64,000 nucleotides of DNA from Candidatus Woesearchaeota archaeon (GTDB taxonomy: Archaea; Nanobdellota; Nanobdellia; Woesearchaeales; DSVV01): NCBI GenBank assembly GCA_018303325.1, contig JAGVYH010000002.1, positions 17,246 through 81,245 of the forward strand, given 5' to 3'. This document shows positions 7,524 to 33,854 of this stretch, one piece after another. How positions within the stretch are numbered: position 1 is the stretch's first letter; every line of letters begins with the position of its first letter. The notes beneath the pieces were generated by a model, which did not search any database, was not told where the DNA came from, and was given only the letters and a program-made list of their open reading frames with translations. The translations under genes and the position numbers were made by a program.

Positions 7524-7646
7524 TTTATTTTCTCTTTAAATTTTATTATTTGAAATAAAGATTATTTTTTTATTTATAAAATATTACTCAAAAGCAATAA
7601 AACTTCATTAACTTTTTAAATTAATAATTATTCCTTAACAATAGTT

Positions 7647-9299: not shown

Positions 9300-9354
9300 T
9301 TAATTTAGGTTATAAGAACAAGAGGGTTAAAAATTAGTTATTTTTTATTAAATT

Positions 9355-10701: not shown

Positions 10702-10936
10702 GACATAAACAATTGCCAGAAGGTTAATAAATCTTATTAATTCGTGTTTCTTTTTTATAATAAAAGGTTAATAGTGAAAACAATGAAGAGATTAGAATAA
10801 AAGTAGGCAATAATGATAATATGGATTATAACCCTATTTTTGTTCTTATTTTCGTCTACAACTGGTGACAATTCTATTGCAATATAAGATTAATACAATA
10901 TAAACTTTTTTAAAGCAATCTGCATTCCTGCAATCT

Positions 10937-11929
10937 ATGTATAAAGGACTTAAAGTCGCATTGGTTATTCCTGCATATAATGAAGAGAAATTAATAAAGC
11001 CAACCTTAGAAACTGTTCCTAAAACAATTGACAAAATATTTGTTATTGATGACTGCAGCACAGATCATATGCCTTCTGTTGTAAAAGAATGTATGAAAAA
11101 TGATAAAAGAATAGTTGGCATAAGGCATAAAAAAAATAAGGGTGTTGGACAAGCAATTATCACTGGTTATAAAGAAGCTGTGATGCTTGGATATGATGTT
11201 GCTGTTGTGATTGGTGGGGACAATCAAATGGATTTAAATGACCTACCTAATTTTTTAGAGCCAATTGCCAGCAAGGAAGCTGATTATGTCAAAGGCAACA
11301 GGTTTATGTTTGATTATTCACAAAAATACAATAACACAGTTGAAGGTAGCGCTTTTAAGGTAATGCCAAGTCAACGTTTCTTTGGCAACTCAATTCTCTC
11401 ATTCATTGTCAAATGGGCATCTGGCTATTGGAAGATTTTTGATACACAAGATGGTTACACTGCAATTACAAGACAAGCAATTGAAAAAATTGATTGGAGA
11501 AAGGCGTGGAAAGGTTATGGTTATGTTGGAGATTGGCTGGCATTATTTAATGTTTATAATTTACGAGTTAAAGATGTTCCTAGACGAGCCATTTATCTGA
11601 AAGGAGAAAGGCAGTCACAAATAAAGATAGGAAGATATATTCTAAAAGTATTGCCTAGAATGATACGATGCTTTTTTTCGAGAATGAAACATAAGTATAT
11701 ATTTCAGGATTTCCATCCTTTAGTTTTATTTTATTTTTTAGGATTTAGTTTATTACCATTGGGTATTTTATTAGGAATTTACATATTTATTAAATGGATG
11801 ATTTATTTCCCAATTGATATTTCAGGAACAAAAGCAGTATTAGTAGCATTATTCATCATTACAGGCATACAAAGCCTTTTCTTTGCTATTTGGTTTGATA
11901 TGCAAGCAAATGAATATTTGCAGAAATAG
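10937..11929 (+). CDS. GT2 family polyprenyl-phosphate glycosyltransferase (ArnC/DPM1-like)
   Basis: VALVIPAYNEE...VIDDCSTD GT-A motifs and DxD region. Two C-terminal TM helices. Confidence 0.85.
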   Translation: MYKGLKVALVIPAYNEEKLIKPTLETVPKTIDKIFVIDDCSTDHMPSVVKECMKNDKRIVGIRHKKNKGVGQAIITGYKEAVMLGYDVAVVIGGDNQMDLNDLPNFLEPIASKEADYVKGNRFMFDYSQKYNNTVEGSAFKVMPSQRFFGNSILSFIVKWASGYWKIFDTQDGYTAITRQAIEKIDWRKAWKGYGYVGDWLALFNVYNLRVKDVPRRAIYLKGERQSQIKIGRYILKVLPRMIRCFFSRMKHKYIFQDFHPLVLFYFLGFSLLPLGILLGIYIFIKWMIYFPIDISGTKAVLVALFIITGIQSLFFAIWFDMQANEYLQK

Positions 11930-12006
11930 AATGAATAAGTAAAATTATTAACTAGATGTATTAAAAAACTTAAAACTAAACATAATTTCATTAAACATAT
12001 AAACAT

Positions 12007-13446
12007 TTGAGACTGAATAAACACAAAATGAAGATAATTTTTATTAATCCACCATTTACTAATTATGTTGGCGGCATAAAAGGGTATGGAGGAAAATCTA
12101 TGCCCTTAAACCTAACTTATTTAGCATCGTATTTAATAAGCAAAGGTTATGAAAATACTTCAATTCTAGATGCCGAAGCATTAGAATTAAGTTATGAACA
12201 AGTATTAGAACATATAAAGAAAGAAGACCCAGACATTATTGGTTTCACATCACCTACCCCTTCTTTTCAGCAGGTTGTTGATTTATCTAACTTGATAAAA
12301 CAACAAAACCCTCACGTGAAAATAATCATCGGTGGACCACATTCATCTGCTCTGCCACTAGACACAGCAAAAGAACCATCTTTAGATTTTGTTTGTTTTG
12401 GAGAAGGAGAATTAACAATGTTAGAGCTTGTTGAATTCATAGAAAAAGGCAGAACAGATTATGATAAAATTGATGGATTAATATATAAAGAAGGGGAAAA
12501 AATTATTCAAAACAAGCAAAGAAAATTAACAGAGAATTTAGATATTTTTCCTTTCCCTGTAAGAAATTTAGTGCCTAGACATCTTTATTATCCACCGCCA
12601 ACAAAAAGTGTAAGTGACAAAAAAGGAACTTCTATGGTAACTTCCAGAGGTTGTCCATTCAATTGTACATATTGTGTTGCAAAAGTAGTATGGACAAGAA
12701 GAGTGAGATATAGAAGTGTTAAAAATGTCGTCGATGAAATGGAAGAATGTGTTAACAAGTATAACCTTGGGGAATTTAATATTCATGACGAGCTGTTTAC
12801 AGCAAATGAAAAGAGAGTTATAGAATTATGCAAAGAGATAATTAATAGAAAACTTGATGTTGGATGGGTATGTATGGCAAGAGTAGATACAATTCATTCA
12901 AAAGAAATGCTGGAATATATGAAAAAAGCTGGATGCGGTAAAATTGTTTTTGGTTTTGAGTCTGGCTCACAAAAAATTTTAGATCTCATGAAAAAAGGTA
13001 CAACTGTTGAACAAGCAATACGTGCTGTAAAACTTGTTAAAGAATCTGGAATCAAAACATCTGGAAATTTCATGTTAGGGAACATTGGTGAAACGCTAGA
13101 AACAATGAGAGAAACAATTGATATGGCTAAAAAACTAAATACAGATACTATTGCTTTTTTTCAGACAAGCCCGTATCCTGGCACAGAGATTTATTATACT
13201 GCACTTGAAAAAGGGTATTTAAGAAAAGATATACAATGGAAGGATTTTGCACTATTATCTAAGACTGCCCCAGCTTTAAATCTTCCAAACTTACCGCCAG
13301 AAGAAGTAGCAAAATGGGTAAAAAAAGGATATAAAGAATTTTATTTAAGGCCCAGTTATATATTAAATCAGATAGCATGTATAAAAAATTGGCGTGATGC
13401 CAAAAGAATGTGGCAGGGAATAAAACTTCTTGTTCAGGTTAGTTAA
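12007..13446 (+). CDS. B12-binding domain radical SAM protein
   Basis: B12-binding N-domain. TSRGCPFNCTYC radical SAM cluster. Confidence 0.85.
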   Translation: MRLNKHKMKIIFINPPFTNYVGGIKGYGGKSMPLNLTYLASYLISKGYENTSILDAEALELSYEQVLEHIKKEDPDIIGFTSPTPSFQQVVDLSNLIKQQNPHVKIIIGGPHSSALPLDTAKEPSLDFVCFGEGELTMLELVEFIEKGRTDYDKIDGLIYKEGEKIIQNKQRKLTENLDIFPFPVRNLVPRHLYYPPPTKSVSDKKGTSMVTSRGCPFNCTYCVAKVVWTRRVRYRSVKNVVDEMEECVNKYNLGEFNIHDELFTANEKRVIELCKEIINRKLDVGWVCMARVDTIHSKEMLEYMKKAGCGKIVFGFESGSQKILDLMKKGTTVEQAIRAVKLVKESGIKTSGNFMLGNIGETLETMRETIDMAKKLNTDTIAFFQTSPYPGTEIYYTALEKGYLRKDIQWKDFALLSKTAPALNLPNLPPEEVAKWVKKGYKEFYLRPSYILNQIACIKNWRDAKRMWQGIKLLVQVS

Positions 13447-13460
13447 ATTTTGAGAAATTA

Positions 13461-14240
13461 TCAACTCTCTTGCTTTTCATATTTCTTGCAAATAAGCATA
13501 CCTCTAAAAAATAATAATTTAGGTATCTTTATGTTTTCAATCTGCTTTAAAAGATTAAACAAAAAAGAAGGTAAGAATTTCTTTACGGATGATGAACACT
13601 CAATAAAACTCATTATTTCAATTTGGGAAGTTAGGCTTAATTTTTTGCAGAAAGCAATAAGTTTAAATGGAAAAGAACCATATGAATTTATACTTATTAT
13701 TATATTAAGCATCCTTCTTAATATTACAAATGGATGAAATCCATTATAAAACTCGATGTATGCAACACCATCTGGCTTTAAGACTCGACTAATTTCTCTT
13801 AATGCATTTTTTTGATTTTCAAAATGGTAAAATGAGTTGAAACAAAAAATCACATCAAAACAATTATCTGGATATGGCAATCTTTCTGCTGATGCTATCT
13901 TAAATTTAACATATTTGTTTTCCTTTTTTGCATGAGTTATCATCAAAGAAGAAAGGTCGCATGCATGCAATTCTTTAGCTATAAGATTCATATGCTTTAA
14001 ATATAACCCTGGACCACAACCCAAATCCAAGACATTTAAGTTTTTTTTGTCTTTTTCTCTGTCTATATATTCATGCCTCTGAGTAGTAATAATCCTCTCA
14101 AATTTGTCAGAATCTCCAAATCGCTCGCCGTAATAAGGTATTATTTTACTATAATGTTTATTAAGCTTTTTCATAGAATTAACTTCGCGATTGTTTAAGA
14201 GATCATCCATTGTAATATACCTTAATCTTCTCAACAACAT
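13461..14240 (-). CDS. class I SAM-dependent methyltransferase
   Basis: VLDLGCGPGLY motif I and LKPDGVAYIEF. Alternative start at MDDLL (about 14210) would remove the overlap with the upstream gene. Confidence 0.75.
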   Translation of the reverse strand: MLLRRLRYITMDDLLNNREVNSMKKLNKHYSKIIPYYGERFGDSDKFERIITTQRHEYIDREKDKKNLNVLDLGCGPGLYLKHMNLIAKELHACDLSSLMITHAKKENKYVKFKIASAERLPYPDNCFDVIFCFNSFYHFENQKNALREISRVLKPDGVAYIEFYNGFHPFVILRRMLNIIISINSYGSFPFKLIAFCKKLSLTSQIEIMSFIECSSSVKKFLPSFLFNLLKQIENIKIPKLLFFRGMLICKKYEKQES

Positions 14241-15333
14241 ATCTTATCTGCTCTTCTGTCATTTCAGGGAACATAGGCAAACTTAACATTGTATTTGCAG
14301 CTTCCTCTGTTACAGGGAAACTTTCTTCATTCAGATTCATGTATCTATAAGCTGACTGAAGATGTAATGGTATTGGATAATGAACACCACATTCTATCTT
14401 GTTGTCTTTCAGGAATTGTTGAAGTTTATCTCTTTTCTCCCTGTTTTTTGTTTTTATAACATAAAGATGATAAACATGTTTTGCATAATCAGCTTCAAAA
14501 GGCGTTATAACATCATCAACATTTGAAAGCAATTCATTGTATAATCTTGCGTTTCTTCGTCTAGCTTCAGTCCACTTGTCAAGATACTTTAACTTAACTT
14601 TCAATACTGCTGCCTGCAATGCATCTAACCTTTCATTCAATCCTTCGAAATCATGCTCGTATTTTGAGCCATGTTTTCTGCCATGGTTTCTCCAAGCATC
14701 AACTTTTTTAGCAATCTCATCGTTATTAGTTACAACCGCTCCGCCATCACCATAACACCCTAAATTTTTTCCAGGGAAAAAACTAAAACAACCTATATCA
14801 CCAACAGGCACTTTTTTATTGTTAAACTCTGCACCATGGGCTTGAGCGCAGTCTTCAATGACTATTAAATCATTTTCTTCTGCAATCTCCTTTATTGGTT
14901 TCATATTGCAAGATTGGCCAAATAAGTGTACAGGTATTATTGCTTTTGTTTGGGGAGTGATAGCATTTTTGATTTTGTCGACATTAATAGTGTATATTTT
15001 AGGATCAATATCAACAAATTTAACTTTTGCACCACAATGAGTGATTACTTCTGCTGTAGCAATAAATGTGTTAGGAACAGTTATAACTTCATCATCATGC
15101 TTTATGCCTGCTGATTTTAATGCTAGGAACAAAGCGCTTGTGCCATTGCTTACACCAACACAATGTTTTGCATTGCAATATGCAGCAAATTCTTTTTCAA
15201 AGTTAGTTACGTTTTCTCCCATAATAAATGCAGTATTATCTATTACATTTTTGATAGCATTATCTATTTCATCTTTTATTGAAAAGTATTGAGCTTTTAA
15301 GTCAACAAATTTTATTGTTTGATTATCATTCAT
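14203..15333 (-). CDS. DegT/DnrJ/EryC1/StrS family sugar aminotransferase (WbpE/ArnB-like)
   Basis: Fold-type I PLP aminotransferase signature and VGVSNGTSAL motif, full length. Confidence 0.9.
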   Translation of the reverse strand: MNDNQTIKFVDLKAQYFSIKDEIDNAIKNVIDNTAFIMGENVTNFEKEFAAYCNAKHCVGVSNGTSALFLALKSAGIKHDDEVITVPNTFIATAEVITHCGAKVKFVDIDPKIYTINVDKIKNAITPQTKAIIPVHLFGQSCNMKPIKEIAEENDLIVIEDCAQAHGAEFNNKKVPVGDIGCFSFFPGKNLGCYGDGGAVVTNNDEIAKKVDAWRNHGRKHGSKYEHDFEGLNERLDALQAAVLKVKLKYLDKWTEARRRNARLYNELLSNVDDVITPFEADYAKHVYHLYVIKTKNREKRDKLQQFLKDNKIECGVHYPIPLHLQSAYRYMNLNEESFPVTEEAANTMLSLPMFPEMTEEQIRYVVEKIKVYYNG

Positions 15334-18553: not shown

Positions 18554-20281
18554 ATGAATATTATTGCAATAATACCTGCAAGGGGTGGCTCTAAAGGGAT
18601 ACCTAAAAAAAATATTGCTTTGTTAGCTGGTAAACCATTGATTGCTTATACTATTGAGGAGGCAAAGAAATCAAAATATATTAATAGAATAATTGTGTCT
18701 ACTGATTCAGAAGAGATTGCAAATGTTTCTAGAGAATATGGGGCAGAGGTGATAATTAGACCTAAAGAACTGGCGCAAGATACAACACCAACTTTGCCGG
18801 TTTTAAAGCATGTATTGGAGAATGTTGAAAAAGAATATTGTGTGAATTTGATTGTTGTATTACAGCCTACTTCTCCCTTAAGAAAAGTTGAGTATATAGA
18901 TTTAGCAATTAAAAAATTAATGGATGAAAATTGTGATTCTGTTGTTTCTGTTTGCAAATTTGACCATTCCCCTGCTGCAATTGTTTCAGTTGAAGATGAT
19001 AAGCTTCAAATGACAAGTACAAACAGTAATAAATTTAGACGACAAGACTCAAATCTTTACTTGATTAATGGTGCGGTTTATGTAGTAAAGAGAGATATAA
19101 TGATGAAACTGGATAATTATATTGTTGGTGGTGATATAAGGATTATAGTTATGCCAAAGGAAGCTTCTGTTGATATAGATGAGCCAATTGATTTAAAATT
19201 AGCTGAATCTTTTTTAAAAGAAGATAAGGATAATATTACACATATAAAAATTGGAGATAAATTAATAGGAAAAGACCAGCCATGTTTTATCATCGCAGAA
19301 GCAGGCGTAAATCACAATGGTAATATAGAAATCGCAAAAAGGTTAATTGATGCTGCAATTGAAGCTAAAGCTGACGCAGTTAAATTTCAAACATTTAAGT
19401 CTGAGAATTTAGTGACTCAAAAAGCAGATATGGCAAGTTATCAGGAGAAGAATATTGGAAAAATAGAAACACAATTTGAAATGCTAAAAAAGTTGGAAAT
19501 GAAGTATTCAGATTTTGAAAGATTAAAAAAATATTGCGATGATAAAGGAATAATATTTCTTTCAACACCACACACTGAAGATGCATCTGAAGCATTAGTC
19601 GATTTAGTTCCTGCATTTAAACTTGGCTCTGGTGATTTAAACAATCTTCCTTTTCTTAAAAAAATTGCAAAATATGAAAAACCGATTATTCTTCCTACAG
19701 GAATGTCAACAATGAACGAAGTAAAAGAAGCATTGAAAACAATCTATAAAGAAGGAAATAAACAAGTGATTGCACTTCACTGCACAACAAATTATCCCTG
19801 CCCATATGAAGAAGTAAATTTAAAGGCAATGCAAGCAATGCAAAATGAGCTAGACTGTCTTGTTGGTTATTCTGACCACACCTTAGGTATAATTGTTCCT
19901 GTAATGGCAGTAACTTCAGGTGCTGTATTAATTGAAAAACATTTCACGCTTGATAAAAACATGGAAGGTCCAGATCATAAAGCGTCTCTTAATGCTAAAG
20001 AATTAAAAGAGATGGTTCAGCAAATACGCATAGCTGAAAAGTCCTTTGGCTCAAATGTAAAAGAACCAACAAAATCAGAATTAAGCATAATGAAGGTTGT
20101 AAGAAAAAGCATTGTTGCAAAAATAGATATTAAAAAAGGCAGTGTTATTACAGAATATATGCTAATTATTAAAAGGCCTGGCACAGGCATTGAACCGAAA
20201 TATATTAATACAATTGTTGGAAAAACAGCAAAAAAAGATATTACTAAAGATAAATTGATAAAAAGGGAGGATATAAAATGA
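18554..20281 (+). CDS. bifunctional CMP-nonulosonic acid synthetase (NeuA/LegF-like, N-terminal) and nonulosonic acid synthase (NeuB/LegI/PseI-like, C-terminal)
   Basis: N-terminal IIPARGGSKGIPKKN cytidylyltransferase motif. C-terminal NeuB TIM barrel (CFIIAEAGVNHNG) plus SAF domain. Confidence 0.9.
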   Translation: MNIIAIIPARGGSKGIPKKNIALLAGKPLIAYTIEEAKKSKYINRIIVSTDSEEIANVSREYGAEVIIRPKELAQDTTPTLPVLKHVLENVEKEYCVNLIVVLQPTSPLRKVEYIDLAIKKLMDENCDSVVSVCKFDHSPAAIVSVEDDKLQMTSTNSNKFRRQDSNLYLINGAVYVVKRDIMMKLDNYIVGGDIRIIVMPKEASVDIDEPIDLKLAESFLKEDKDNITHIKIGDKLIGKDQPCFIIAEAGVNHNGNIEIAKRLIDAAIEAKADAVKFQTFKSENLVTQKADMASYQEKNIGKIETQFEMLKKLEMKYSDFERLKKYCDDKGIIFLSTPHTEDASEALVDLVPAFKLGSGDLNNLPFLKKIAKYEKPIILPTGMSTMNEVKEALKTIYKEGNKQVIALHCTTNYPCPYEEVNLKAMQAMQNELDCLVGYSDHTLGIIVPVMAVTSGAVLIEKHFTLDKNMEGPDHKASLNAKELKEMVQQIRIAEKSFGSNVKEPTKSELSIMKVVRKSIVAKIDIKKGSVITEYMLIIKRPGTGIEPKYINTIVGKTAKKDITKDKLIKREDIK

Positions 20282-20919
20282 ATGTTCTTGTCGTAGCAGC
20301 ACATCCTGACGATGAAATATTGGGTGTTGGCGGAACTTTGTTAAAACACAGGCAAAAAGGAGATACTATTTATGTGTGCATTGTTACAAAGGCATATGAG
20401 CCACAATGGACAAAAGAATATATTGAGCAAAAAATTGTTGAGCAGAAGAAAGTTGATGAAGTGTTAGGTGTAAAAAAAAGATTTAATTTAAATCTTCTAA
20501 CAGTTAAGTTGAACACTTTGCCACATGGTGAGATTAATAAAAGAGTGGCTGATGTTATAGAAGAGGTCAATCCAGATATAGTGTATACCCATTTTGAAGG
20601 TGATATAAATTACGATCATACCATTGTTTTTAGGGCGTGTATGGTTGCCACAAGACCACCTAAACAAGTTAGATTATTATGTTTTGAAACGCCTTCTGAA
20701 ACAGAATGGAACAATAAGCCATTCAATCCTAATTTATGGATAAATATAAATGAATTCATAAACCAAAAGATAGAAGCATTTAAAATATATGAATTAGAAC
20801 TAAAAAAATATCCACACCCAAGAAGTTTAGAGGGTGTTAGAATTCTAGCAAAAAAAAGAGGATTAGAAATTTGTAAAGAATATGCAGAAGCATTTATTGT
20901 AGTGAGGGATTTTGGATAA
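20278..20919 (+). CDS. PIG-L/LmbE family de-N-acetylase
   Basis: AHPDDE zinc-binding motif at the N-terminus. ATGA overlap with the upstream gene. Confidence 0.8.
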   Translation: MNVLVVAAHPDDEILGVGGTLLKHRQKGDTIYVCIVTKAYEPQWTKEYIEQKIVEQKKVDEVLGVKKRFNLNLLTVKLNTLPHGEINKRVADVIEEVNPDIVYTHFEGDINYDHTIVFRACMVATRPPKQVRLLCFETPSETEWNNKPFNPNLWININEFINQKIEAFKIYELELKKYPHPRSLEGVRILAKKRGLEICKEYAEAFIVVRDFG

Positions 20920-21685
20920 AATGAACGTAATTTGGCTGTCAGCAAATAAATTGGGGTATGAACTATTAAAAGAAGCAGTTAAAATAAAAGAGGTTAATAT
21001 TATGGGCATTGTAACTTTAGATAAAGATGCTTCTACTGTTATGTATGATGCAGTTCCCGAAAAAGTGTGGAGTCAATTTGGTATTCCGATACATAAAATA
21101 AAGCGGTTAAATGAAGAAAAAGAATTAATTACAAAATTATCTCCTGATTTAATAATTATGTGTGGTTGGAGACAAATTGTTGATAAAGAGATAATAAACC
21201 TGCCTAAAGAAGGGTTTATAGGATTTCACCCAACATTGCTTCCTATCGGCAGAGGCCCAGCGCCAATAATAAATACCTTATTAAATGAGTTTAAGGAATC
21301 TGGATTGACTATGTTTTATGTAACAGAAGGATTAGACAATGGTGATATTATTGGGCAAGAGAAATTTGTTATTTATGAAGAAGATCATGCTCAAGAAGTA
21401 TATAATAAAGTAATACTTGCTGGACGAAAGTTAATACAAAAATATCTTCCTTTGTTAATAAAAGGTAAAGCACAAAGAAACCTACAAGATGAATCTAAGG
21501 CAACATTTTTTGAAAAATTAAGCTTAAAAGATAATGAAATAGATTTGAATAAAGAATCCCTTGAAATAATTTATAAAAAAATACGTGCCTTTTCTAAACC
21601 GTACAAAGGGGCATATATTAAAAGGAATGGTAAAAAATTAATAATATGGTCAGCAGAATTAATAGAAACAGATGGTGCAAAATGA
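20912..21685 (+). CDS. formyltransferase family protein (sugar N-formyltransferase, Fmt/ArnA-N-like)
   Basis: GFHPTLLPIGRG and DNGDII catalytic motifs of 10-formyl-THF-dependent formyltransferases. Confidence 0.8.
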   Translation: MDKMNVIWLSANKLGYELLKEAVKIKEVNIMGIVTLDKDASTVMYDAVPEKVWSQFGIPIHKIKRLNEEKELITKLSPDLIIMCGWRQIVDKEIINLPKEGFIGFHPTLLPIGRGPAPIINTLLNEFKESGLTMFYVTEGLDNGDIIGQEKFVIYEEDHAQEVYNKVILAGRKLIQKYLPLLIKGKAQRNLQDESKATFFEKLSLKDNEIDLNKESLEIIYKKIRAFSKPYKGAYIKRNGKKLIIWSAELIETDGAK

Positions 21686-22830
21686 GAAAAATTTGTGTTT
21701 TAACTGGAACTAGAGCAGAATATGGCTTGTTAAAACCAATTATACGAGCAATAAGAAATAATCCAGAATTAGAGCTTATTCTTATAGTAAGTGGGATGCA
21801 TTTATCAAGGAAATTTGGTGAGACAATTAATATAATTAAAGAAGATAATTTTGATATTAATTATACTTTTGAAATGAATCCTAAAGACGATAGTAACGAT
21901 GCTATGGCAATGGCAATAGGGATAGGAATACAAAAAATAGTTGATTGTTTTAAGAATTCTAATCCTGATATTCTTTTAATTTTAGGGGATAGAATTGAAG
22001 TTTTGGCTGGAGTTATTGCCGCTGCTTACATGAATATTGTGATTGCACATATACATGGCGGGGACATTACAAGAGCGGGGTTAGATGAATCGGCAAGGCA
22101 TGCTATTACTAAATTTGCCCATATTCATTTTCCTGCAACACAAAAAAGTGCTGAGAGAATTTTAAAAATGGGTGAAGATAAATGGAGAGTTCATGTTGTT
22201 GGTGCACCTGCGTTAGATACTATATTAAACACCCCACTACTAGAAAAAAAAGCATTAGAAAAGGAATTAAACCTTAAATTAAAAAAACCATTTATATTGA
22301 TGATACAACATTCGGTATCGACACAGCATAAAGATGCTGAGAAACAAATAAAGGAAACATTAGAAACAGTAAAAGAATTAAAATATCAAACATTGATAAT
22401 ATATCCTAATTCTGATACTGGCGGAAGGAAGATAATTAATCAGATTGAGTTATACGCAAAGGAGTTTCAGTTTATCAAAATATATAAAAATTTGCCGTAT
22501 ACTGTTTATTTAAGCTTAATGAAATATGCAGATGTAATGGTTGGAAACTCCAGCAGTGGAATCATTGAATCATCTTCTTTCAAATTGCCCGTAGTTAATA
22601 TTGGAATAAGACAAGAAGGAAGAGAAAGGTCAAATAATATAATTAATGTTGAACATAACAAAGAAAAGATAATCTTAGCTATTAAAAAAGCATTGTCTAT
22701 TACGTTTAGAAATTCCTTAAGAGACTGTAAAAACCCGTATGGAAATGGAAAAACTGCGCAAGAAGTAGTTAATGTTTTATCAAGTATTAAAATAAACAGC
22801 AAATTATTACAAAAAAAGATTACTTATTAA
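21682..22830 (+). CDS. UDP-N-acetylglucosamine 2-epimerase, hydrolysing type (NeuC/LegG-like)
   Basis: KICVLTGTRAEYGLL N-terminus typical of NeuC. ATG 21682 overlaps the upstream stop as ATGA. Confidence 0.85.
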   Translation: MRKICVLTGTRAEYGLLKPIIRAIRNNPELELILIVSGMHLSRKFGETINIIKEDNFDINYTFEMNPKDDSNDAMAMAIGIGIQKIVDCFKNSNPDILLILGDRIEVLAGVIAAAYMNIVIAHIHGGDITRAGLDESARHAITKFAHIHFPATQKSAERILKMGEDKWRVHVVGAPALDTILNTPLLEKKALEKELNLKLKKPFILMIQHSVSTQHKDAEKQIKETLETVKELKYQTLIIYPNSDTGGRKIINQIELYAKEFQFIKIYKNLPYTVYLSLMKYADVMVGNSSSGIIESSSFKLPVVNIGIRQEGRERSNNIINVEHNKEKIILAIKKALSITFRNSLRDCKNPYGNGKTAQEVVNVLSSIKINSKLLQKKITY

Positions 22831-22831
22831 C

Positions 22832-23392
22832 ATGAAATTAACAATTAGAAAGAAAATCTCTCCTATAAGAGATGGCTTAACAAAAAAAACAATTGAAAAA
22901 AAAAGCAGATTAATTTTAATTAATCTTATTAAGATGAGTATATTTAAAAATTCAAAAAATATAAGTTGTTATGTATCACAAGATTCTGAAGTAGATACCC
23001 ATCGGTTGATTAAACTAATAATACAAAGTAAAAGAAAAGTAATTGTACCTTTTGTTGACAAGGAGATGAATTGTGCGGAATTATTTGATTTTAATAAATT
23101 AATGAGAGGTAAATTTGGGATATTAGAACCAAAAGAAAAAAAGAGATTTAACAAAGACATGTTGGACTTAATAATTATTCCTGGTGTTGTTTTTGACAGG
23201 AAAGGTAATCGGATTGGAAGAGGCAAAGGATATTATGATAAATTTTAAAAAAAAGTTAAATCAAAAAAAATTGCTCTTGCTTATGATTTACAAGTGTTTG
23301 AAAATATCCCATTTGAACATCATGATATAAAAATGGATTATATAATAACAGAATCAAAGATAATAAATTGTGAAGAGATTAGGGCAAAATGA
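22832..23392 (+). CDS. 5-formyltetrahydrofolate cyclo-ligase (MTHFS family), interrupted by an in-frame TAA at 23246-23248
   Basis: GRGKGYYD motif occurs before the stop. The conserved C-terminal ...IALAYDLQVF...HDIKMDYIITE continues in the same frame after the stop and ends in an ATGA overlap with folD. Confidence 0.6.
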
Positions 23393-24261
23393 CAGCTAAA
23401 ATTATTGACGGAAAAAAAATAGCAGAAGGTATTAAGGAAAAGTTAAAATTTCAGATTGAAGGATTAACTATTAAACCATGCCTTGCTGTTATTTTAGTAG
23501 GCAATAATCCCGCTTCAAATGTTTATGTTAATATGAAGGAAATTGAATGCACAAAATTAGGTATAATATTAAAAAAATATTGTCTAAAAGAGAATTTATT
23601 GGAAGAGAAATTGTTAAATTTAATCAAAGCTCTTAATAACGATGTTCATGTTCATGGCATATTGGTTCAGTTGCCTTTACCATCACATATTGATGAATTT
23701 AACATTATTGAAGCCATTGAACCAAAAAAAGATGTAGATGGATTTCATGCAATTAATATGGGTTGTTTGTTTATTGGAACTCCTAAATTTGAGCCTTGTA
23801 CACCTAAAGCAATAATAGAAATGATTAACTCAACAAATATAACAATTGAGGGAAAACATGCAGTAATTGTTGGAAGAAGCAAGATTGTTGGTAATCCAGT
23901 AGCACAGCTACTCCTACAACATAATACGACAGTAACAATTTGTCACTCCAAAACACACGATCTTAAAGAATATACAAAGCAAGCAGACATTTTGGTTGTA
24001 GCTGTGGGTATACCACATCTCATAAAAGAGGATATGATTAAAGAAGGCGCAATTGTAATTGATGTAGGTGTTAATAGAATAGAGGATATTACATATAAAA
24101 AAGGATATTATTTATGCGGAGATGTTGATTTTGAGAAAGTTATAAATAAGGCATCATACATCTCTCCTGTACCTGGTGGCGTTGGTCCAGTAACAATAGC
24201 GATGTTAATGTCAAATACCTTAAAAGCGTATCATCTAATTGAAAATGGAAAAGCGATTTAA
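23389..24261 (+). CDS. folD: bifunctional methylene-THF dehydrogenase / methenyl-THF cyclohydrolase
   Basis: Full-length FolD with HGILVQLPLP and GRSKIVG motifs. Confidence 0.9.
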   Translation: MTAKIIDGKKIAEGIKEKLKFQIEGLTIKPCLAVILVGNNPASNVYVNMKEIECTKLGIILKKYCLKENLLEEKLLNLIKALNNDVHVHGILVQLPLPSHIDEFNIIEAIEPKKDVDGFHAINMGCLFIGTPKFEPCTPKAIIEMINSTNITIEGKHAVIVGRSKIVGNPVAQLLLQHNTTVTICHSKTHDLKEYTKQADILVVAVGIPHLIKEDMIKEGAIVIDVGVNRIEDITYKKGYYLCGDVDFEKVINKASYISPVPGGVGPVTIAMLMSNTLKAYHLIENGKAI

Positions 24262-24652
24262 AGAGTGGAAAAAGCCTGAAATTAAAGATGGAGAATTGAC
24301 TAAATGGAATTGGGTTGTGCAACATATTAATGGGCTTAAACTTGGAGAATATACAGATATAGGCGCATTTACTTATATCAATGCAAAGTATGGTGTTGAA
24401 ATTCAAGATGATGTTCAAATTGGAAGCCATTGCTCAATATACAGCCACAGCACAATTGATAATAAACAAGGTAAGATAACTCTTAAAAAAAATTGCAGAA
24501 TTGGTTCACATTGTGTTATAATGCCAGGAGTAACTATTGGAGAAAATTCAGTTATAGGTGCGTTTAGTTTTGTAAATAAAAATATTCCTGATAATGTAAT
24601 TGCTTATGGTGTTCCTGTTAAGATTAAAGAAAACAGCAACAATAATAAGTAA
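24239..24652 (+). CDS. hexapeptide-repeat acetyltransferase (LegH/PseH-position N-acetyltransferase)
   Basis: Left-handed beta-helix hexapeptide repeats. Confidence 0.8.
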   Translation: MKMEKRFKEWKKPEIKDGELTKWNWVVQHINGLKLGEYTDIGAFTYINAKYGVEIQDDVQIGSHCSIYSHSTIDNKQGKITLKKNCRIGSHCVIMPGVTIGENSVIGAFSFVNKNIPDNVIAYGVPVKIKENSNNNK

Positions 24653-24703
24653 TAAGTCAACCTTGAAATGAAGCTCGTTTTAGCTGCGGTTTAGGTAAAA
24701 TCA

Positions 24704-24798
24704 AAGTTTTGTTTATACTAAAAGCACAAAATAATCGAACATTATTTTGTGCTTTTGTATATACAAAAGCAATTAATTTGTTCGAAAATTAATTGCTT
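24704..24798. repeat. Family A double-hairpin intergenic repeat, copy A1
   Basis: Two adjacent roughly 18-bp-stem hairpins: TACTAAAAGCACAAAATAAT...ATTATTTTGTGCTTTTGTATA and TACAAAAGCAATTAATTT...AAATTAATTGCTTTTAGTATA. Confidence 0.7.
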
Positions 24799-24893
24799 TT
24801 AGTATATAAACAAAAGTTGCGGACTTATTACATACAACAATAAGAGATAGTATTTGTAGATTTATAATACAATTATCGTTAGAGGATATTAAA

Positions 24894-26018
24894 ATGGAGA
24901 TTATACCATTAGCAAAACCATATATAGGAAACGAAGAGATTGAAGCAGTTTGTGAGGTTTTAAAATCCGGATGCTTAAGCCTAGGTCCAAAGTTAGAAGA
25001 ATTTGAAGAAAGATTTGCAAAATTTGTGGGTGTTAGATATGCTATTGCAGTCAGCTCTGGCACAACAGGGTTGCACTTGTGTATGGCAAATTTAAACTTA
25101 AAACAAGGGGATGAAGTAATTACAACACCATTATCGTTTGTTGCATCTGCAAATTGCATTTTGTATATGAATGCTAAACCAGTCTTTGTTGATATTGATC
25201 CATTGACATTGAACATTGATCCAAAAAAGATAGAAAATGCAATTACATCCAAAACAAAAGCAATTTTGATTGTTCATATATTTGGAATGCCATGTGATAT
25301 GGATCCAATTATAGAAATTGCAAAGAAGTACAATCTCCTAATTATAGAAGATGCTTGTGAAGCATTGGGAGCAGAATACAAAGGCAAGAAGGTTGGTACT
25401 TTTGGTTTGGCATCAGTGTTTGCATTCTATCCAAACAAACAAATTACAACTGGTGAAGGTGGGATGATATGTACAAATAGTCAAGAAATTTATACTCTTT
25501 GTAAAAGTTTAAGGAATCAAGGAAGACCTGTTGACTCAAGTTGGTTAGTTCATGAAAGAGTTGGATTTAATTATAGATTAAACGAAATAAGCTGTAGTTT
25601 AGGAATTGAACAGTTAAAAAAAGTTGAGTTAATTCTTAAAAAAAGAGAAATTGTTGCAGAAACGTATAACCAATTACTTGATGGAACAGATGGAGTCGTT
25701 ATTCCATATAAATCAGATATTGCAAAACGAAGTTGGTTTATTTACTTTATCATTCTTTCAGAATATTTAAAAAGAGATGAACTATCCCAGAAATTAGATA
25801 AAAAAGGGATTAAAACAAAACCATACTTACCTTGTATACATCTACAACCAGCATATGTTAGATTATTTGGGTATAAAAAAGGAGATTTTCCAGTATGTGA
25901 AAAAATTAGTGAACATACACTAGCATTACCTTTTTTTACAGATATGAATAAAGAGACTATTGAGAAAGTTTGTAGTGAACTAAAGAGAGAGATTAAAGAT
26001 GTTTTTTCAACTAACTAA
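24894..26018 (+). CDS. DegT family aminotransferase (LegC/PseC-like UDP-4-keto-6-deoxy sugar aminotransferase)
   Basis: PLP aminotransferase fold and position next to the 4,6-dehydratase. Confidence 0.9.
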   Translation: MEIIPLAKPYIGNEEIEAVCEVLKSGCLSLGPKLEEFEERFAKFVGVRYAIAVSSGTTGLHLCMANLNLKQGDEVITTPLSFVASANCILYMNAKPVFVDIDPLTLNIDPKKIENAITSKTKAILIVHIFGMPCDMDPIIEIAKKYNLLIIEDACEALGAEYKGKKVGTFGLASVFAFYPNKQITTGEGGMICTNSQEIYTLCKSLRNQGRPVDSSWLVHERVGFNYRLNEISCSLGIEQLKKVELILKKREIVAETYNQLLDGTDGVVIPYKSDIAKRSWFIYFIILSEYLKRDELSQKLDKKGIKTKPYLPCIHLQPAYVRLFGYKKGDFPVCEKISEHTLALPFFTDMNKETIEKVCSELKREIKDVFSTN

Positions 26019-27042
26019 AAGATCAACATTCGGTGGTAAGATTATTCTTGTTACTGGTGGCTTAGGTTCTATTGGCTCAGAAATTGTAAGGCAATTGCTG
26101 AAATATAACCCTAAACAGGTACGAATATTTGACAATAGAGAAACTGAAACTTTTTTTATGCAACATGAGCTTAAACAGCACTCAAATCTTCGCTTTTTAG
26201 TCGGTGATGTAAGAGATAAAGATAGGCTTAATATGGCAATGGAACATGTAAACATTGTTTTTCATGCTGCTGCTTTAAAACATGTTCCGCTTTGCGAATA
26301 CAATCCATTCGAAGCTGTTAAAACTAATGTTTATGGTACCCAAAATATAATTGATACTGCTTTAACAAACAATGTAGAGAAAGTAGTAAATATTAGTACA
26401 GACAAAGTAACTAATACTATAAATACCATGGGTGCTACTAAGTTACTGGCTGAAAGGCTTATTTCGTCAGCTCAATATTTTAAAGGCAATAAAAAAACAA
26501 TTTTTTCATCAGTCAGATTTGGAAATGTGATAGATTCTAGAGGATCAATTATTGACCTTTTTAAAAAACAAATTAAACATGGTGGACCGGTTACAATTAC
26601 AAATCCAGATATGACTAGATTTGTTATGTCAACTAAACAGGCAGTTAATCTTGTTTTGAAAACTGCTGAAGAAATGCATGGGGGAGAAATTTTTATTTTG
26701 AAGATGCCGATATTTAAATTAAATGATTTAGTGGAAGTGGTTATAGAAGAGTTATCTTATAAAGAGGGATATGACTCAAAGAACATAAAAATAAAAAATA
26801 TAGGTATTAGAGAAGGTGAAAAATTATATGAAGACCTTATGACAGAGGTTGAAGCACAGAATTCATTAGAAACACAGACTAAATTTATTGTCCTATCAAA
26901 ATTAGGACTGCCAAATTATAAAGGACACCAGAAAAATTATAAAGCAATTAAAACAATAAAAGAACGATATTCTTCAAGGGATATCAAACCATTATCAAAA
27001 GAATTGTTAAAGAGGATACTTGTAAATGAAAAGATAATTTAA
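25999..27042 (+). CDS. UDP-GlcNAc 4,6-dehydratase, polysaccharide biosynthesis CapD/PseB/LegB family
   Basis: KIILVTGGLGSIGSEI Rossmann motif and SDR-extended fold. Confidence 0.85.
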   Translation: MFFQLTKRSTFGGKIILVTGGLGSIGSEIVRQLLKYNPKQVRIFDNRETETFFMQHELKQHSNLRFLVGDVRDKDRLNMAMEHVNIVFHAAALKHVPLCEYNPFEAVKTNVYGTQNIIDTALTNNVEKVVNISTDKVTNTINTMGATKLLAERLISSAQYFKGNKKTIFSSVRFGNVIDSRGSIIDLFKKQIKHGGPVTITNPDMTRFVMSTKQAVNLVLKTAEEMHGGEIFILKMPIFKLNDLVEVVIEELSYKEGYDSKNIKIKNIGIREGEKLYEDLMTEVEAQNSLETQTKFIVLSKLGLPNYKGHQKNYKAIKTIKERYSSRDIKPLSKELLKRILVNEKII

Positions 27043-30368: not shown

Positions 30369-31853
30369 CTAAGAACTGGTTATTATTTTTGGATTATTTT
30401 TAATTATTTGAACTGCTTTTTTCATTGTTTTTTTAAGACCGTGTTTTTTTGTAGCATAATAAACCATTTTGAATTTTGTTTTGATATCTTCCATCATTCT
30501 TCTCGGATGCAACAATCTATATTTATTTATATCATTTCTTATATCATTTTCAAGCCGCCTTAATTTTTTGATAAATTCCTCATTATTAAAATCAGTACAA
30601 TTAAGGTATAAATCATTAACACCTTCTAACCCCATTAAATAATTTAATTCATCGCTTATTAATCCTTGCTCTTTTGCCCATTCATAAAGCTTTGTTCCTG
30701 GTAAAGGAGTAGTTACAGCAAATCCTGACGTTGGTTCAACATGAAGGCTTTTACAAAATTCTCTTGTTTCTTTTATTGAGTTTTCATCCTCACCAGGGTA
30801 TCCAAACATCATTTGCACTATTGGCTTCATTCCTGCATTTAATGTCTCTTGTATAGCATATTTATTTAATTCAACTGTGCTCTTTTTGTTCATATTATCT
30901 AATATTCTTTGGCTTCCTGATTCAATCCCATATCCTACATAAACACAACCCGCCTCTTTCATTTTCTTTAACAAAGAAGGAGTTATACAATTAACTCTGC
31001 CTTGGCACATCCAAGATATATTTAATGGTTTAATTTTGCCACATAACTCTAACATTCGGCTTTCACTAATCATTACCAATTCTTCTGCAAATTGTATCTG
31101 TGTGACATTGTACTTTTTTCTTAGTATACTAATTTCTTCGATTATCTTGTCTATTGATCTTAATCTTACACCATTAAAAGTTTTTGAGCAGAAATAACAA
31201 TTCCATGGACAGCCTCTTGCAGTTATTACATTCATACTGTTTGGATATTCTGGCTCAAAGAAAAAAGGGGTCTTTAAATATGATTCGATTGAAAATAAAT
31301 TCCATGCAGGCAATTCAATTGAATCTATGTCCTTGAGTTGAGTTTCATTAGTGGTTCGGATATATATCCCATTCTTCATAAAAGTAATGCCCTTTACGGT
31401 TTTTAGTTGTTCAAAATAGTTATCAGCATTACTCTTTTCTATTGTTTTAAGAATATTAGGCAGGATGATTTCTCCCTCCCCCATAACACAAATATCTACT
31501 TTTGTATTTTTTAACACAATTTCGCTGCTATGCATGGCCAATGCACCACCCAGAATAATCAAAGGGGAATTTGCTTTTGATTTAATATGCGTACTAATCC
31601 ACTTTACATATTTAAATTCTGGAGACATAGCAGAAATTCCAACACAATCAAAATTCTTTTTTTGTATAATTGATAAAACTTCTTCGTCAGTATACATCAT
31701 AACATCTATATCCAGTATATCTACTTGATAACCATCTTTAATAAGATGGGATGCGATATATGCTAATCCCAAAGGCAACCAAGCTGCATATCTTCGTTTA
31801 CCATTATATATCTGCGGTAGATGTATTAATAATATTTTTTTCATTTGAAACAC
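30369..31853 (-). CDS. B12-binding domain radical SAM protein
   Basis: B12-binding N-domain and ARGCPWNCYFC cluster. Confidence 0.85.
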   Translation of the reverse strand: MFQMKKILLIHLPQIYNGKRRYAAWLPLGLAYIASHLIKDGYQVDILDIDVMMYTDEEVLSIIQKKNFDCVGISAMSPEFKYVKWISTHIKSKANSPLIILGGALAMHSSEIVLKNTKVDICVMGEGEIILPNILKTIEKSNADNYFEQLKTVKGITFMKNGIYIRTTNETQLKDIDSIELPAWNLFSIESYLKTPFFFEPEYPNSMNVITARGCPWNCYFCSKTFNGVRLRSIDKIIEEISILRKKYNVTQIQFAEELVMISESRMLELCGKIKPLNISWMCQGRVNCITPSLLKKMKEAGCVYVGYGIESGSQRILDNMNKKSTVELNKYAIQETLNAGMKPIVQMMFGYPGEDENSIKETREFCKSLHVEPTSGFAVTTPLPGTKLYEWAKEQGLISDELNYLMGLEGVNDLYLNCTDFNNEEFIKKLRRLENDIRNDINKYRLLHPRRMMEDIKTKFKMVYYATKKHGLKKTMKKAVQIIKNNPKIITSS

Positions 31854-31855
31854 TC

Positions 31856-33139
31856 TTAAATACCAACAATTTTTTTGTGAAATTTAAGTATATTTATAAT
31901 TCTTTTGATATCATGATAATTCATATCTGAGTGTGTTGGCAGATTAATCATTTCTTTACTTATTTTATCTGCATTTGGGCAATTACCTTTATCATATCCA
32001 TAGAGACTCATATTTTCTTTAAGAGGATAAATTGGCGAGTCAAACCAGCAACCAACATCAACCTGATTTCTTCTAAATAAATTTATTAGTTTCTGCCTTT
32101 CTTTAAAACACAAAGCATATCTTAAATAAATATGTTTAACATTTTTTATAATGTGCGGTGTTTCAATATTCAACTTTTTCAATTCTTCATCTAATCTCAT
32201 CGCATTATTTATCCTAACTTTATTAAACAAATCAATCTTTTTTAACTGTTCAAGCCCAATTTTAGCAAATATATTATGCATTTTTATCATAAAACAGTTT
32301 GGTTTTTCAGCATTTAATTCATCTTTTGTGATAGTTGTGTTAAATAATCCTATCATTTTACATACAAGATCTATTAAATATATAAGAGGTAAACCAAAAA
32401 AATAAACGCTTTGATTAAGAAACAGGCGATACCTGATTATGTTTAATAAATGCCAAAAAACAAATAAGTTAGATGGTTTTTTACAGCATTGTTGTATTGC
32501 TTTCATCTTTTCAAAGTTTTTTTTGTCTTTTACTACAACTATGCCTCCTTGGCCAGTTGTAATATTTTTAGTATAATCAAAAGAGAAAAACCCAAAATCA
32601 AAAAAAGTGCCTACCTTTTTGCCTTTGTATTCTGCACCTAACGCTTGTGCACAATCTTCAATTACAGGGATATGATATAGGTCTGATACTTTTTTAATTT
32701 CATCAATTTCTGCTGGCTGCCCAAACAAATGATGAATAATTATTGCTTTAGTCTTAAAAGTTATTTTCTTTTTCATATCTGAAACAAGCGGATTAAACGT
32801 GTTGATACCAACATCATAATAAACTGGCTTAGCACCTGTATAAATTATTGCATTTGGAACCACAACACAAGTATAACCTGGAACTAAAACTTCATCACCT
32901 TGTTTTATTCCTAAACTTGTTAAAATGGCATATAATCCTATTCTGCCTTTTCCAAAGCTTAAAGAATACTTAACACCAAGATAGTTTGAAAATCTATTCT
33001 CAAATAGATTACAATAATCTTTTTTTTCTTCTTTGAATAATCCAATTATGGCTATTTTTATTTCATCCAAACCAATAGTTGGGTAAGGATTTATAGTGAT
33101 TTGTCGGATATATTTTCTAAGAAGATAAGTGAATATCAT
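31856..33139 (-). CDS. DegT family aminotransferase-like protein with internal hydrophobic insertion
   Basis: DegT N-terminal half (GDEVLVPGYTCVV...IEDCAQALGA), then a roughly 60-aa hydrophobic insert. Confidence 0.75.
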   Translation of the reverse strand: MIFTYLLRKYIRQITINPYPTIGLDEIKIAIIGLFKEEKKDYCNLFENRFSNYLGVKYSLSFGKGRIGLYAILTSLGIKQGDEVLVPGYTCVVVPNAIIYTGAKPVYYDVGINTFNPLVSDMKKKITFKTKAIIIHHLFGQPAEIDEIKKVSDLYHIPVIEDCAQALGAEYKGKKVGTFFDFGFFSFDYTKNITTGQGGIVVVKDKKNFEKMKAIQQCCKKPSNLFVFWHLLNIIRYRLFLNQSVYFFGLPLIYLIDLVCKMIGLFNTTITKDELNAEKPNCFMIKMHNIFAKIGLEQLKKIDLFNKVRINNAMRLDEELKKLNIETPHIIKNVKHIYLRYALCFKERQKLINLFRRNQVDVGCWFDSPIYPLKENMSLYGYDKGNCPNADKISKEMINLPTHSDMNYHDIKRIINILKFHKKIVGI

Positions 33140-33804: not shown

Positions 33805-33854
33805 TATACTAACATCACAAAACAATGTCGATTATTTTGCGCTTTTAGTATACA
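33805..33854. repeat. Family A-like degenerate single hairpin
   Basis: GTATACTAA...ATTATTTTGCGCTTTTAGTATAC. Confidence 0.4.

Follow-up and report, generated by a model that had tools for sequence, protein, structure and literature searches.

A putative N-formyl nonulosonate cassette with a partial folate cofactor module in a Woesearchaeota-labelled archaeon

N-formylated nonulosonic acids are established as surface determinants. In the archaeon Halorubrum sp. PV6, 5-N-formyl-legionaminic acid has been proven on the N-glycan, and the corresponding cluster comprises legC, legB, legF, legG, the predicted formyltransferase gene HrrPV6_1050, neuD and legI (PMC6137143). The formylated sugar caps the glycan of the S-layer and of a viral spike, and is thought to mediate virus attachment. 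In Ca. Kuenenia stuttgartiensis, CMP-nonulosonates have been described that carry one formylated and one free amine (SugarBase preprint, bioRxiv 10.64898/2026.04.20.719630). N-formyl nonulosonates, the involvement of PseJ in the pseudaminic acid (Pse) pathway and the deacetylase/formyltransferase pair of Kuenenia are therefore already known, whereas for legionaminic-type (Leg) pathways the formyl-installing enzymes are so far uncharacterised. Here, we describe a run of genes at positions 18554 to 27042 of a 64,000-nucleotide stretch (the window) of contig JAGVYH010000002.1, labelled Candidatus Woesearchaeota, in which a nonulosonate synthase, a PIG-L de-N-acetylase, a predicted sugar N-formyltransferase and enzymes of folate metabolism are encoded side by side.

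Our analysis indicates that this run probably represents a horizontally mobile cassette for an N-formylated, legionaminic-type 5,7-diamino-3,5,7,9-tetradeoxy-nonulosonic acid, to which a cofactor module has been recruited in DPANN archaea. Open-access literature searches on two subjects, nonulosonate clusters that contain folate genes and Leg or Pse pathways that combine PIG-L with a formyltransferase, returned only the Halorubrum paper and the SugarBase preprint. Neither an insertion or fusion of folate enzymes into nonulosonate clusters nor an Asn-less formyltransferase family paired with PIG-L was reported in that literature.

The cassette and its deacetylase/formyltransferase pair

We assigned gene identities with Pfam and NCBIfam profiles and their curated cutoffs. 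The searches recovered, with the same assignments, every gene named in an initial annotation that had been made from the sequence alone. The features of the run are as follows, where THF stands for tetrahydrofolate.

18554 to 20281, plus strand: CMP-nonulosonate synthetase (NeuA/LegF-like, residues 4-170) fused to a nonulosonate synthase (NeuB/LegI-like, residues 244-569) and a SAF domain; PF02348, PF03102, PF08666
20278 to 20919, plus strand: PIG-L/LmbE-family metal-dependent de-N-acetylase; PF02585, 89 bits (cutoff 28.2)
20921 to 21685, plus strand: ArnA/Fmt/FDH-like predicted N-formyltransferase of 254 amino acids, here called FMTL; PF00551, 78 bits; PF02911, positions 1-52 of 100
21682 to 22830, plus strand: hydrolysing UDP-sugar 2-epimerase (NeuC/LegG type); TIGR03568, 458.9 bits (cutoff 235.9)
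22832 to 23248, plus strand: 5-formyl-THF cyclo-ligase (5-FCL), N-terminal 138 codons up to a premature TAA; PF01812, TIGR02727
23249 to 23392, plus strand: in-frame C-terminal remnant of 5-FCL; alignment with homologues
23389 to 24261, plus strand: FolD (5,10-methylene-THF dehydrogenase/5,10-methenyl-THF cyclohydrolase), apparently intact; PF00763, 133 bits; PF02882, 231.6 bits
24245 to 24652, plus strand: left-handed beta-helix (LbH, hexapeptide-repeat) acetyltransferase of 135 amino acids; PF00132, 66 bits
24704 to 24818, no strand: nested palindromic element; repeat search and RNA folding
24894 to 26018, plus strand: DegT-family pyridoxal phosphate-dependent aminotransferase (PseC/LegC-like); PF01041, 422 bits
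25999 to 27042, plus strand: short-form nucleoside diphosphate (NDP)-HexNAc 4,6-dehydratase (Polysacc_synt_2; PseB/PglF-like); PF02719, 348 bits

The genes that define a legionaminic-type pathway are present. The NeuA/NeuB fusion protein (575 amino acids; PF02348 at 112 bits in its N-terminal domain) exceeds the equivalog cutoff of TIGR03569 (452.5 versus 399.65 bits) and falls below that of the PseI profile (279.7 versus 340.25 bits), NeuC likewise exceeds its own, and a CMP-activating cytidylyltransferase accompanies them. The genes are tightly packed, with ATGA start/stop overlaps at 20278, 21682 and 23389, gaps of a single nucleotide at two junctions (20919/20921 and 22830/22832), and overlaps of 17 nucleotides between FolD and LbH and of 20 nucleotides between DegT and the dehydratase. 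The initial annotation had read this as one translationally coupled run. The three ATGA overlaps are all in the sequence, but the third involves only the end of the 5-FCL remnant, and a structured spacer of 241 nucleotides splits the run between LbH and DegT.

The most consistent feature of the cassette in other genomes is the pairing of FMTL with PIG-L. When each GTDB species was scanned through a single genome, with a search pattern that itself contained FHPTLLPxGR, we obtained 61 FMTL loci (individual loci are given below by L numbers). A PIG-L gene was found in the same fetched locus in 54 of them, usually adjacent, and five of the seven loci without one are cut by contig ends. The 54 partners share the HPDDE motif, with H9, D11, D12, E13, D109, D113 and H114 invariant. 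The PIG-L protein of the window has the PF02585 domain, HPDDE and the distal Asp/His site, and at 70.6 bits against a cutoff of 182.5 it is not a BshB/MshB enzyme. Even distant FMTL proteins (27-39% identity; L044-L068, from Planctomycetes, WOR-3, Bacteroidota, Actinomycetota and others) still adjoin PIG-L, which usually lies 200-300 nucleotides downstream. In these loci DegT or a dehydratase is sometimes present and NeuB is nearly always absent, the only match being a weak one of 31% in L050. The pair seems to be a general module for exchanging N-acyl groups on amino sugars.

Closer relatives carry the pair within a larger unit. The core cassette consists of NeuB, PIG-L, FMTL, NeuC, LbH, DegT and the dehydratase, and is conserved at 47-75% identity across DPANN archaea, methanogens, CPR bacteria, Margulisbacteria and Elusimicrobia. 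At an FMTL identity of at least 47%, its hosts include the archaea Woesearchaeota, Nanoarchaeota, Iainarchaeum and Hadarchaeota, the methanogens Methanosarcinales, Methanogenium, Methanospirillum and Methanoregulaceae, and, among bacteria, Daviesbacteria, Parcubacteria, Gottesmanbacteria, Margulisbacteria, Elusimicrobia and others. LbH is the most conserved cassette protein; its identity of about 70% across domains (tblastn) points to horizontal spread of the cassette. Several components are also fused in continuous reading frames confirmed by Pfam. FMTL is joined to NeuC in L025 and L039. A locus from Methanosarcinales (L017; frames within 8762-14334) encodes NeuB-FMTL and NeuC-PIG-L fusions, and a Woesearchaeota locus (L039; frames within 7218-13623) encodes a NeuA-NeuB-PIG-L fusion in addition to FMTL-NeuC and 5-FCL-FolD. 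LbH is fused to DegT in L017 and L025. Because they are fused in these other loci, the components are tied, as far as their genes can tell, to a single pathway, and FMTL is put next to the predicted NeuC step.

These gene contents suggest a route in which the dehydratase and the DegT aminotransferase would turn NDP-GlcNAc into a 4-amino-4,6-dideoxy sugar, whose 4-amino group is presumably acetylated by the LbH enzyme. PIG-L would then strip the original 2-N-acetyl group (the future N5), and FMTL would re-acylate the same nitrogen with a formyl group from 10-formyl-THF. NeuC would release and epimerise the sugar, the NeuB domain would condense it with phosphoenolpyruvate, and the fused NeuA domain would yield the CMP-sugar. 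From this route we would expect a 5-N-formyl-7-N-acetyl nonulosonate of legionaminic type, the sugar that has been proven in Halorubrum sp. PV6, for use in an S-layer, an N-glycan or a lipid glycan. An exchange of acetyl for formyl at N2/N5 is proposed because the deacetylase and FMTL are tightly paired and a separate acetyltransferase is conserved alongside them. The idea in the initial annotation that removal of an N-acetyl group leads to an N-formylated legionaminic-type sugar thus gains strong comparative-genomic support. The sequences directly show gene identities, synteny, fusions, which catalytic residues are conserved and that 5-FCL is interrupted, while the substrates, the order of steps, the final product, the site of formylation and 10-formyl-THF as the donor are what we infer.

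Several arguments below depend on the host being an archaeon. The window is low in GC (about 30%), derives from Rifle-type groundwater metagenomes, and its proteins are labelled Candidatus Woesearchaeota by NCBI. It encodes a class I LysRS, and in an independent assembly PCNA and PTH2 are joined to the same genes on one contig. It also encodes bacterial-looking genes, namely an RpoD-like sigma-70, GyrA and two-component systems. A bacterial origin was nevertheless rejected given the linkage to PCNA and PTH2 and given that sigma-70 genes have been reported in Woesearchaeota with mis-binning excluded (PMC8204110). On the strength of the PCNA/PTH2 linkage, the class I LysRS and the published sigma-70 genes, we treat the host as a DPANN archaeon. 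The sigma-70 gene of the window (50353-51924, minus strand) encodes regions 2-4, and the C-terminal half of its product is 55-58% identical to proteobacterial RpoD; the single close relative found (82%) is likewise labelled Woesearchaeota.

Folate enzymes inside the cassette

The initial annotation proposed that FolD and 5-FCL, encoded in the operon, regenerate the formyl donor on site. Comparative genomics strongly favours a link between such genes and the cassette. Among 38 non-redundant cassette loci, counted without the window's own population, 12 carry folate genes (FolD, 5-FCL, SHMT or FolC) among or beside the cassette genes, almost all of them in DPANN archaea, and the enrichment in DPANN-labelled loci is significant (9/14 versus 1/20; Fisher p = 3e-4). 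The arrangements are diverse. FolD occurs alone in L010, and together with 5-FCL in L007, L014, L016 and L039. SHMT accompanies FolD in L012, FolC in L036, and both 5-FCL and FolD in L024. The genes run LbH, 5-FCL, FolC, SHMT, FolD, DegT in L022, with the folate genes inserted between LbH and DegT, and NeuB, SHMT, FolD, FolC, formyltransferase in L136. Fusions occur as well: FolD-5-FCL in L009, 5-FCL-FolD in L016, L039 and L074 (the last among the FolD relatives), and in L041 a single frame of 885 amino acids (11999-14653) that reads LbH-SHMT-FolD. By comparison, among 37 loci with a generic FolD (45-56% identical to that of the window), each spanning 6 kb or more, none contained NeuB, PIG-L, 5-FCL or FolC and one contained SHMT.

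A side observation concerns L007, a Nanoarchaeota cassette. At 12313-12990, between LbH and the 5-FCL/FolD genes and immediately upstream of 5-FCL, it encodes a second formyltransferase of 225 amino acids with a canonical N-F-H motif, which hints that both amino groups are formylated there, or that another sugar is.

In these organisms, the folate enzymes would form a supply line in which SHMT loads a one-carbon (C1) unit from serine onto THF and FolD oxidises and hydrolyses the C1-THF to 10-formyl-THF, the proposed substrate of FMTL. FolC would retain salvaged folate and 5-FCL would rescue 5-formyl-THF, a dead-end by-product of SHMT that is known to be recycled in this way (PMC6416297).

Within the window itself, this line is broken at its 5-FCL gene. 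An in-frame TAA at 23246-23248 (GYYDKF*KK) lies at the boundary of a T4/A8 tract (TTTTAAAAAAAAG), so that gene callers report a product of 138 amino acids, and it occupies a position at which Leu is invariant in an alignment of five 5-FCL homologues. The stop removes 47 residues. The downstream codons remain in frame and still encode the conserved Q154, H164, D165, D169 and IIT, of which H164, D165 and D169 are invariant, up to a TGA at 23390-23392 that overlaps the FolD ATG. The gene is thus not an intact open reading frame, but with the stop read as X the TIGR02727 profile matches over its full length (positions 1-182 of 182; 164.5 bits, cutoff 84.9), and the PF01812 match likewise spans the stop. 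Sequencing error or polymorphism was rejected as the cause because six independent assemblies from different samples all carry the same stop, and reassignment of the codon was rejected because the neighbouring PIG-L, NeuC, FolD and LbH genes all terminate in TAA. The TAA thus marks either a real nonsense mutation of recent evolutionary origin or a position where readthrough is needed. The initial annotation had named the correct family and overlooked that its reading frame is broken.

Several observations weigh against our interpretation. First, the aminotransferase and the dehydratase fall below both the Pse and the Leg equivalog cutoffs (DegT: TIGR03588 [PseC], 340 versus 424 bits, and TIGR04181 [LegC type], 303 versus 420; dehydratase: TIGR03589 [PseB], 316 versus 407.75, and TIGR04180 [LegB type], 73 versus 475), so the enzyme classes are present but do not fix the stereochemistry. 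Second, FMTL lacks the canonical catalytic Asn of the N-x-H motif expected of its family, a point to which we return below. Third, the formyl-supply module is incomplete in this genome (SPECIFICALLY): FolD appears intact, 5-FCL is truncated, and SHMT and FolC are absent from the window and from 20 kb of inspected flanking contig. Fourth, cassettes of methanogens, CPR and other bacteria lack folate genes. Fifth, the lineage of the window FolD is not exclusive to the cassette. Its nearest relatives (59-64% identity; L072-L074) lie beside 5-FCL or are fused to it, in clusters of amino-sugar or NeuB genes, yet FMTL is missing from L072 and L073 has only a weak Formyl_trans_N-like open reading frame, while in L071 FolD is fused to a formyltransferase domain and PurH lies about 2.5 kb upstream.

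Given this last point, it could be argued that FolD and 5-FCL are general one-carbon enzymes that ended up in a glycan island by chance or through gene compaction. DPANN archaea have small genomes with many glycan genes, members of the window FolD clade are also found beside nonulosonate genes where FMTL is missing, and a 5-FCL pseudogene is evidently tolerated here. In a simple neighbour-joining tree, the cluster-linked FolDs fall into two to three clades, none containing a generic FolD. A single FolD clade travelling with the cassette was thus not found, and the pattern may reflect repeated recruitment or plain taxonomy. Still, we regard co-location of housekeeping genes as unlikely. It would not predict folate genes interleaved in at least six different arrangements, 5-FCL and FolD fused in both orders, SHMT-FolD fused to the cassette acetyltransferase, or the absence of NeuB, PIG-L and 5-FCL from all 37 generic FolD loci, and in an archaeon there is no formylation of Met-tRNA to be supplied. 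For the same reason, the test put forward in the initial annotation, that FolD and 5-FCL being the only genomic copies would mark them as housekeeping genes, is ill-posed: with no Fmt to feed, a single FolD copy is no argument for mere housekeeping.

Recruitment of folate enzymes to the cassette remains our preferred explanation, with a qualification for the window. FolD appears intact (NF010783, 339.3 bits against a cutoff of 333; both Pfam domains present), but FolD alone cannot recharge THF and requires a C1 loader such as SHMT, which sister cassettes encode and the window does not. With 5-FCL truncated and SHMT and FolC not in the inspected DNA, the built-in formyl supply is partial in this genome and must rely on genes located elsewhere. 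Comparative genomics lends good support to the claim of an operon-encoded donor supply, both FolD and 5-FCL being embedded in sister cassettes, but the claim does not hold in full for the genome that gave rise to it. The interpretation in the initial annotation is largely borne out, except for the truncated 5-FCL and its incomplete account of donor regeneration.

A broader version of this idea can be offered tentatively. It is possible that folate metabolism in DPANN archaea (SHMT, FolD, 5-FCL and FolC) has been captured by nonulosonate formylation and kept mainly or solely for that purpose, as a self-contained operon for cofactor salvage and glycan tailoring, with the Asn-less FMTL and PIG-L acting as an N-acyl exchange machine that has spread beyond nonulosonate clusters, for example in Planctomycetes and WOR-3.

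Formyl transfer and the identity of FMTL

Formylation might instead be transient, in the manner of ArnA and ArnD. In that scheme, the 4-amine would be formylated to drive the unfavourable transamination and PIG-L would later remove the formyl or acetyl group, leaving a mature sugar that is unformylated or formylated at N7. The closest fold to FMTL is that of the ArnA formyltransferase domain, the genes for formyltransferase and hydrolase are strictly paired, and the CMP-nonulosonates of Kuenenia bear one free amine next to one formyl group. We nonetheless find this distinctly unlikely. The conserved LbH enzyme is already at hand to trap the 4-amine, and it is the one fused to the aminotransferase in L017 and L025; 5-N-formyl is stable in Halorubrum, and the CMP-sugars of Kuenenia are formylated. 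Moreover, ArnD belongs to a different hydrolase family than PIG-L.

A stable N-formyl product presupposes that FMTL is a formyltransferase. In a PDB sequence search, its closest matches were Fmt (that of B. anthracis being the best, 1.5e-30), ArnA (1e-24) and the hydrolase domain of FDH, and it was distant from PseJ (2.7e-14, 56 bits), WlaRD and VioF. It scores below every curated family cutoff, including that of TIGR00460 for fmt (146.3 versus 201.5 bits), and its C-terminal domain is cut short, matching positions 1-52 of the 100 in Formyl_trans_C before the protein stops at residue 254. An AlphaFold2 model (pLDDT 94.4) superimposes on the ArnA formyltransferase domain, Fmt and FDH with a TM score of about 0.85 in Foldseek. 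On sequence and modelled structure, then, FMTL belongs to an ArnA/Fmt/FDH-like family of about 250 amino acids and is predicted to be a sugar N-formyltransferase.

The active site is unusual. In FMTL, G-F-H replaces N-x-H, and [IV]GFHPTLLP is found in 99 of 120 homologues (about 250 amino acids long). The Asn is kept in just one of the 113 homologues with a recognisable motif, the other 112 having Gly, Ala or Ser. His103, Asp139 and the folate motif HPTLLP are invariant, so that the Formyl_trans_N fold, the catalytic His and Asp and the (S/T)LLP motif that characterise 10-formyl-THF-dependent N-formyltransferases are all in place. The FDH domain, which uses 10-formyl-THF, is also without the Asn (IIYHPSLLP; PDB 2bw0, 1s3i), and for this reason its loss is compatible with formyl-folate chemistry.

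The same comparison could be turned around. If FMTL were not a formyltransferase, it might bind or hydrolyse folate, or transfer a different acyl group, and the FDH domain that shares the loss of Asn acts as a hydrolase or transfers to phosphopantetheine. Methanogen cassettes (L017, L025, L032, L035 and L042) likewise combine FMTL/PIG-L nonulosonate genes with no folate genes in the fetched loci, and most methanogens use methanopterin in place of folate. However, the near-universal replacement of Asn has left the catalytic His and Asp and the folate-binding TLLP untouched, enzymes that make 10-formyl-THF are repeatedly embedded beside FMTL, and formylated products have been seen in organisms with analogous clusters. 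A role other than formyl transfer is, in our judgment, very unlikely. That FMTL is a true methionyl-tRNA formyltransferase, as its best PDB match and the NCBI/JGI annotations would have it, is effectively refuted by the sub-cutoff score, the halved tRNA-binding domain, the missing Asn, the strict synteny with PIG-L and NeuC, the fusions to NeuC or NeuB in other loci, the presence of the family in methanogens as well, and an archaeal host, in which the initiator tRNA would not be formylated; to our knowledge, no archaeon formylates its initiator Met-tRNA.

Surroundings of the cassette and comparison with described systems

The spacer that separates LbH from DegT (24653-24893) contains a nested palindrome of 115 nucleotides with two perfect hairpins of 15-16 bp (AAAAGCA...TGCTTTT), which folds as RNA at -44.4 kcal/mol (z = -8.4). 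The LbH and DegT genes of most related loci overlap or lie no more than about 100 nucleotides apart, and no further copies of the palindrome were found within the window. It may have been inserted here, or may act as a terminator or encode a small RNA. Across the entire window, no tRNA or Rfam family was matched, and a scan for sigma-70 promoters and terminators, a model unsuited to an archaeon, gave no more matches than shuffled sequence.

The cassette is embedded in a glycan island of roughly 38 kb that also encodes three B12-binding radical SAM enzymes, three further DegT aminotransferases, several methyltransferases, a GDP-mannose 4,6-dehydratase, a flippase and PMT-like transferases (listed coordinates include 6153-7523, 12007-13446 and 30369-31853, as well as 14203-15333, 31856-33139 and 33845-34948). 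This gene content points to amino sugars with extensive tailoring. Less expected in such an island is a redox protein, an FrhB/FdhB-like member of the F420 hydrogenase beta-subunit family with 4Fe-4S domains (2623-3885, minus strand), which is encoded between LPG_synthase_TM and PMT-like glycosyltransferase genes. Elsewhere in the window, a protein of 514 amino acids (60492-62036, plus strand) contains both a PEP-utilizers mobile domain and a weak Sigma70_r4-like helix-turn-helix; a homologue (32% identical) is found in L072, an archaeal locus with diphthamide synthase.

Together with its relatives, the locus defines a deacetylase/formyltransferase pair that is conserved across domains, and it indicates that genome-reduced DPANN archaea carry a formyl-donor supply line within a glycan operon, albeit a partial one in the window genome. 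If our interpretation is correct, it would offer a concrete reason why DPANN symbionts retain folate enzymes, a genomic marker with which to predict N-formyl sialic-acid-like sugars in uncultured lineages, and candidate enzymes for the chemo-enzymatic synthesis of N-formyl nonulosonates.

Among described enzymes, those of the Fmt family (TIGR00460) are the highest-scoring sequence relatives of FMTL; common to both are the Formyl_trans_N core and the first part of the C-terminal domain, but FMTL is about 60 amino acids shorter, has Gly in place of Asn, and belongs to an archaeal host and a glycan-pathway context. PseJ (PDB 6ci2) is similar in being a 10-formyl-THF-type formyltransferase dedicated to a nonulosonate pathway. 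It differs from the distantly matching FMTL in being a short single-domain protein and in serving the Pse pathway, which is not of the NeuC/NeuB type. The ArnA formyltransferase domain (PDB 2bln, 5j63) has the same two-subdomain architecture (TM 0.85) and formylates a UDP-amino sugar, UDP-Ara4N, with 10-formyl-THF. Yet it is only 25-27% identical to FMTL, retains N102-x-H104, is partnered by ArnD rather than PIG-L, and formylates transiently.

Two whole pathways come closer. Kuenenia, a planctomycete, pairs a deacetylase with a formyltransferase in a Leg-like cluster, and because its CMP-nonulosonates are already formylated, formylation there precedes transfer to the glycan (bioRxiv 10.64898/2026.04.20.719630). 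Compared by description of its enzymes, it differs in that its product keeps one free amine, and the word folate appears nowhere in the text of the preprint. The cluster of Halorubrum PV6, compared by its published description, has no reported folate genes, a longer formyltransferase gene (at least 953 bp) and no described PIG-L partner, HrrPV6_1052 not being discussed. It is similar to the window cassette in that an archaeal, legionaminic-type pathway has its formyltransferase gene between legG, the counterpart of NeuC, and neuD, the counterpart of LbH.

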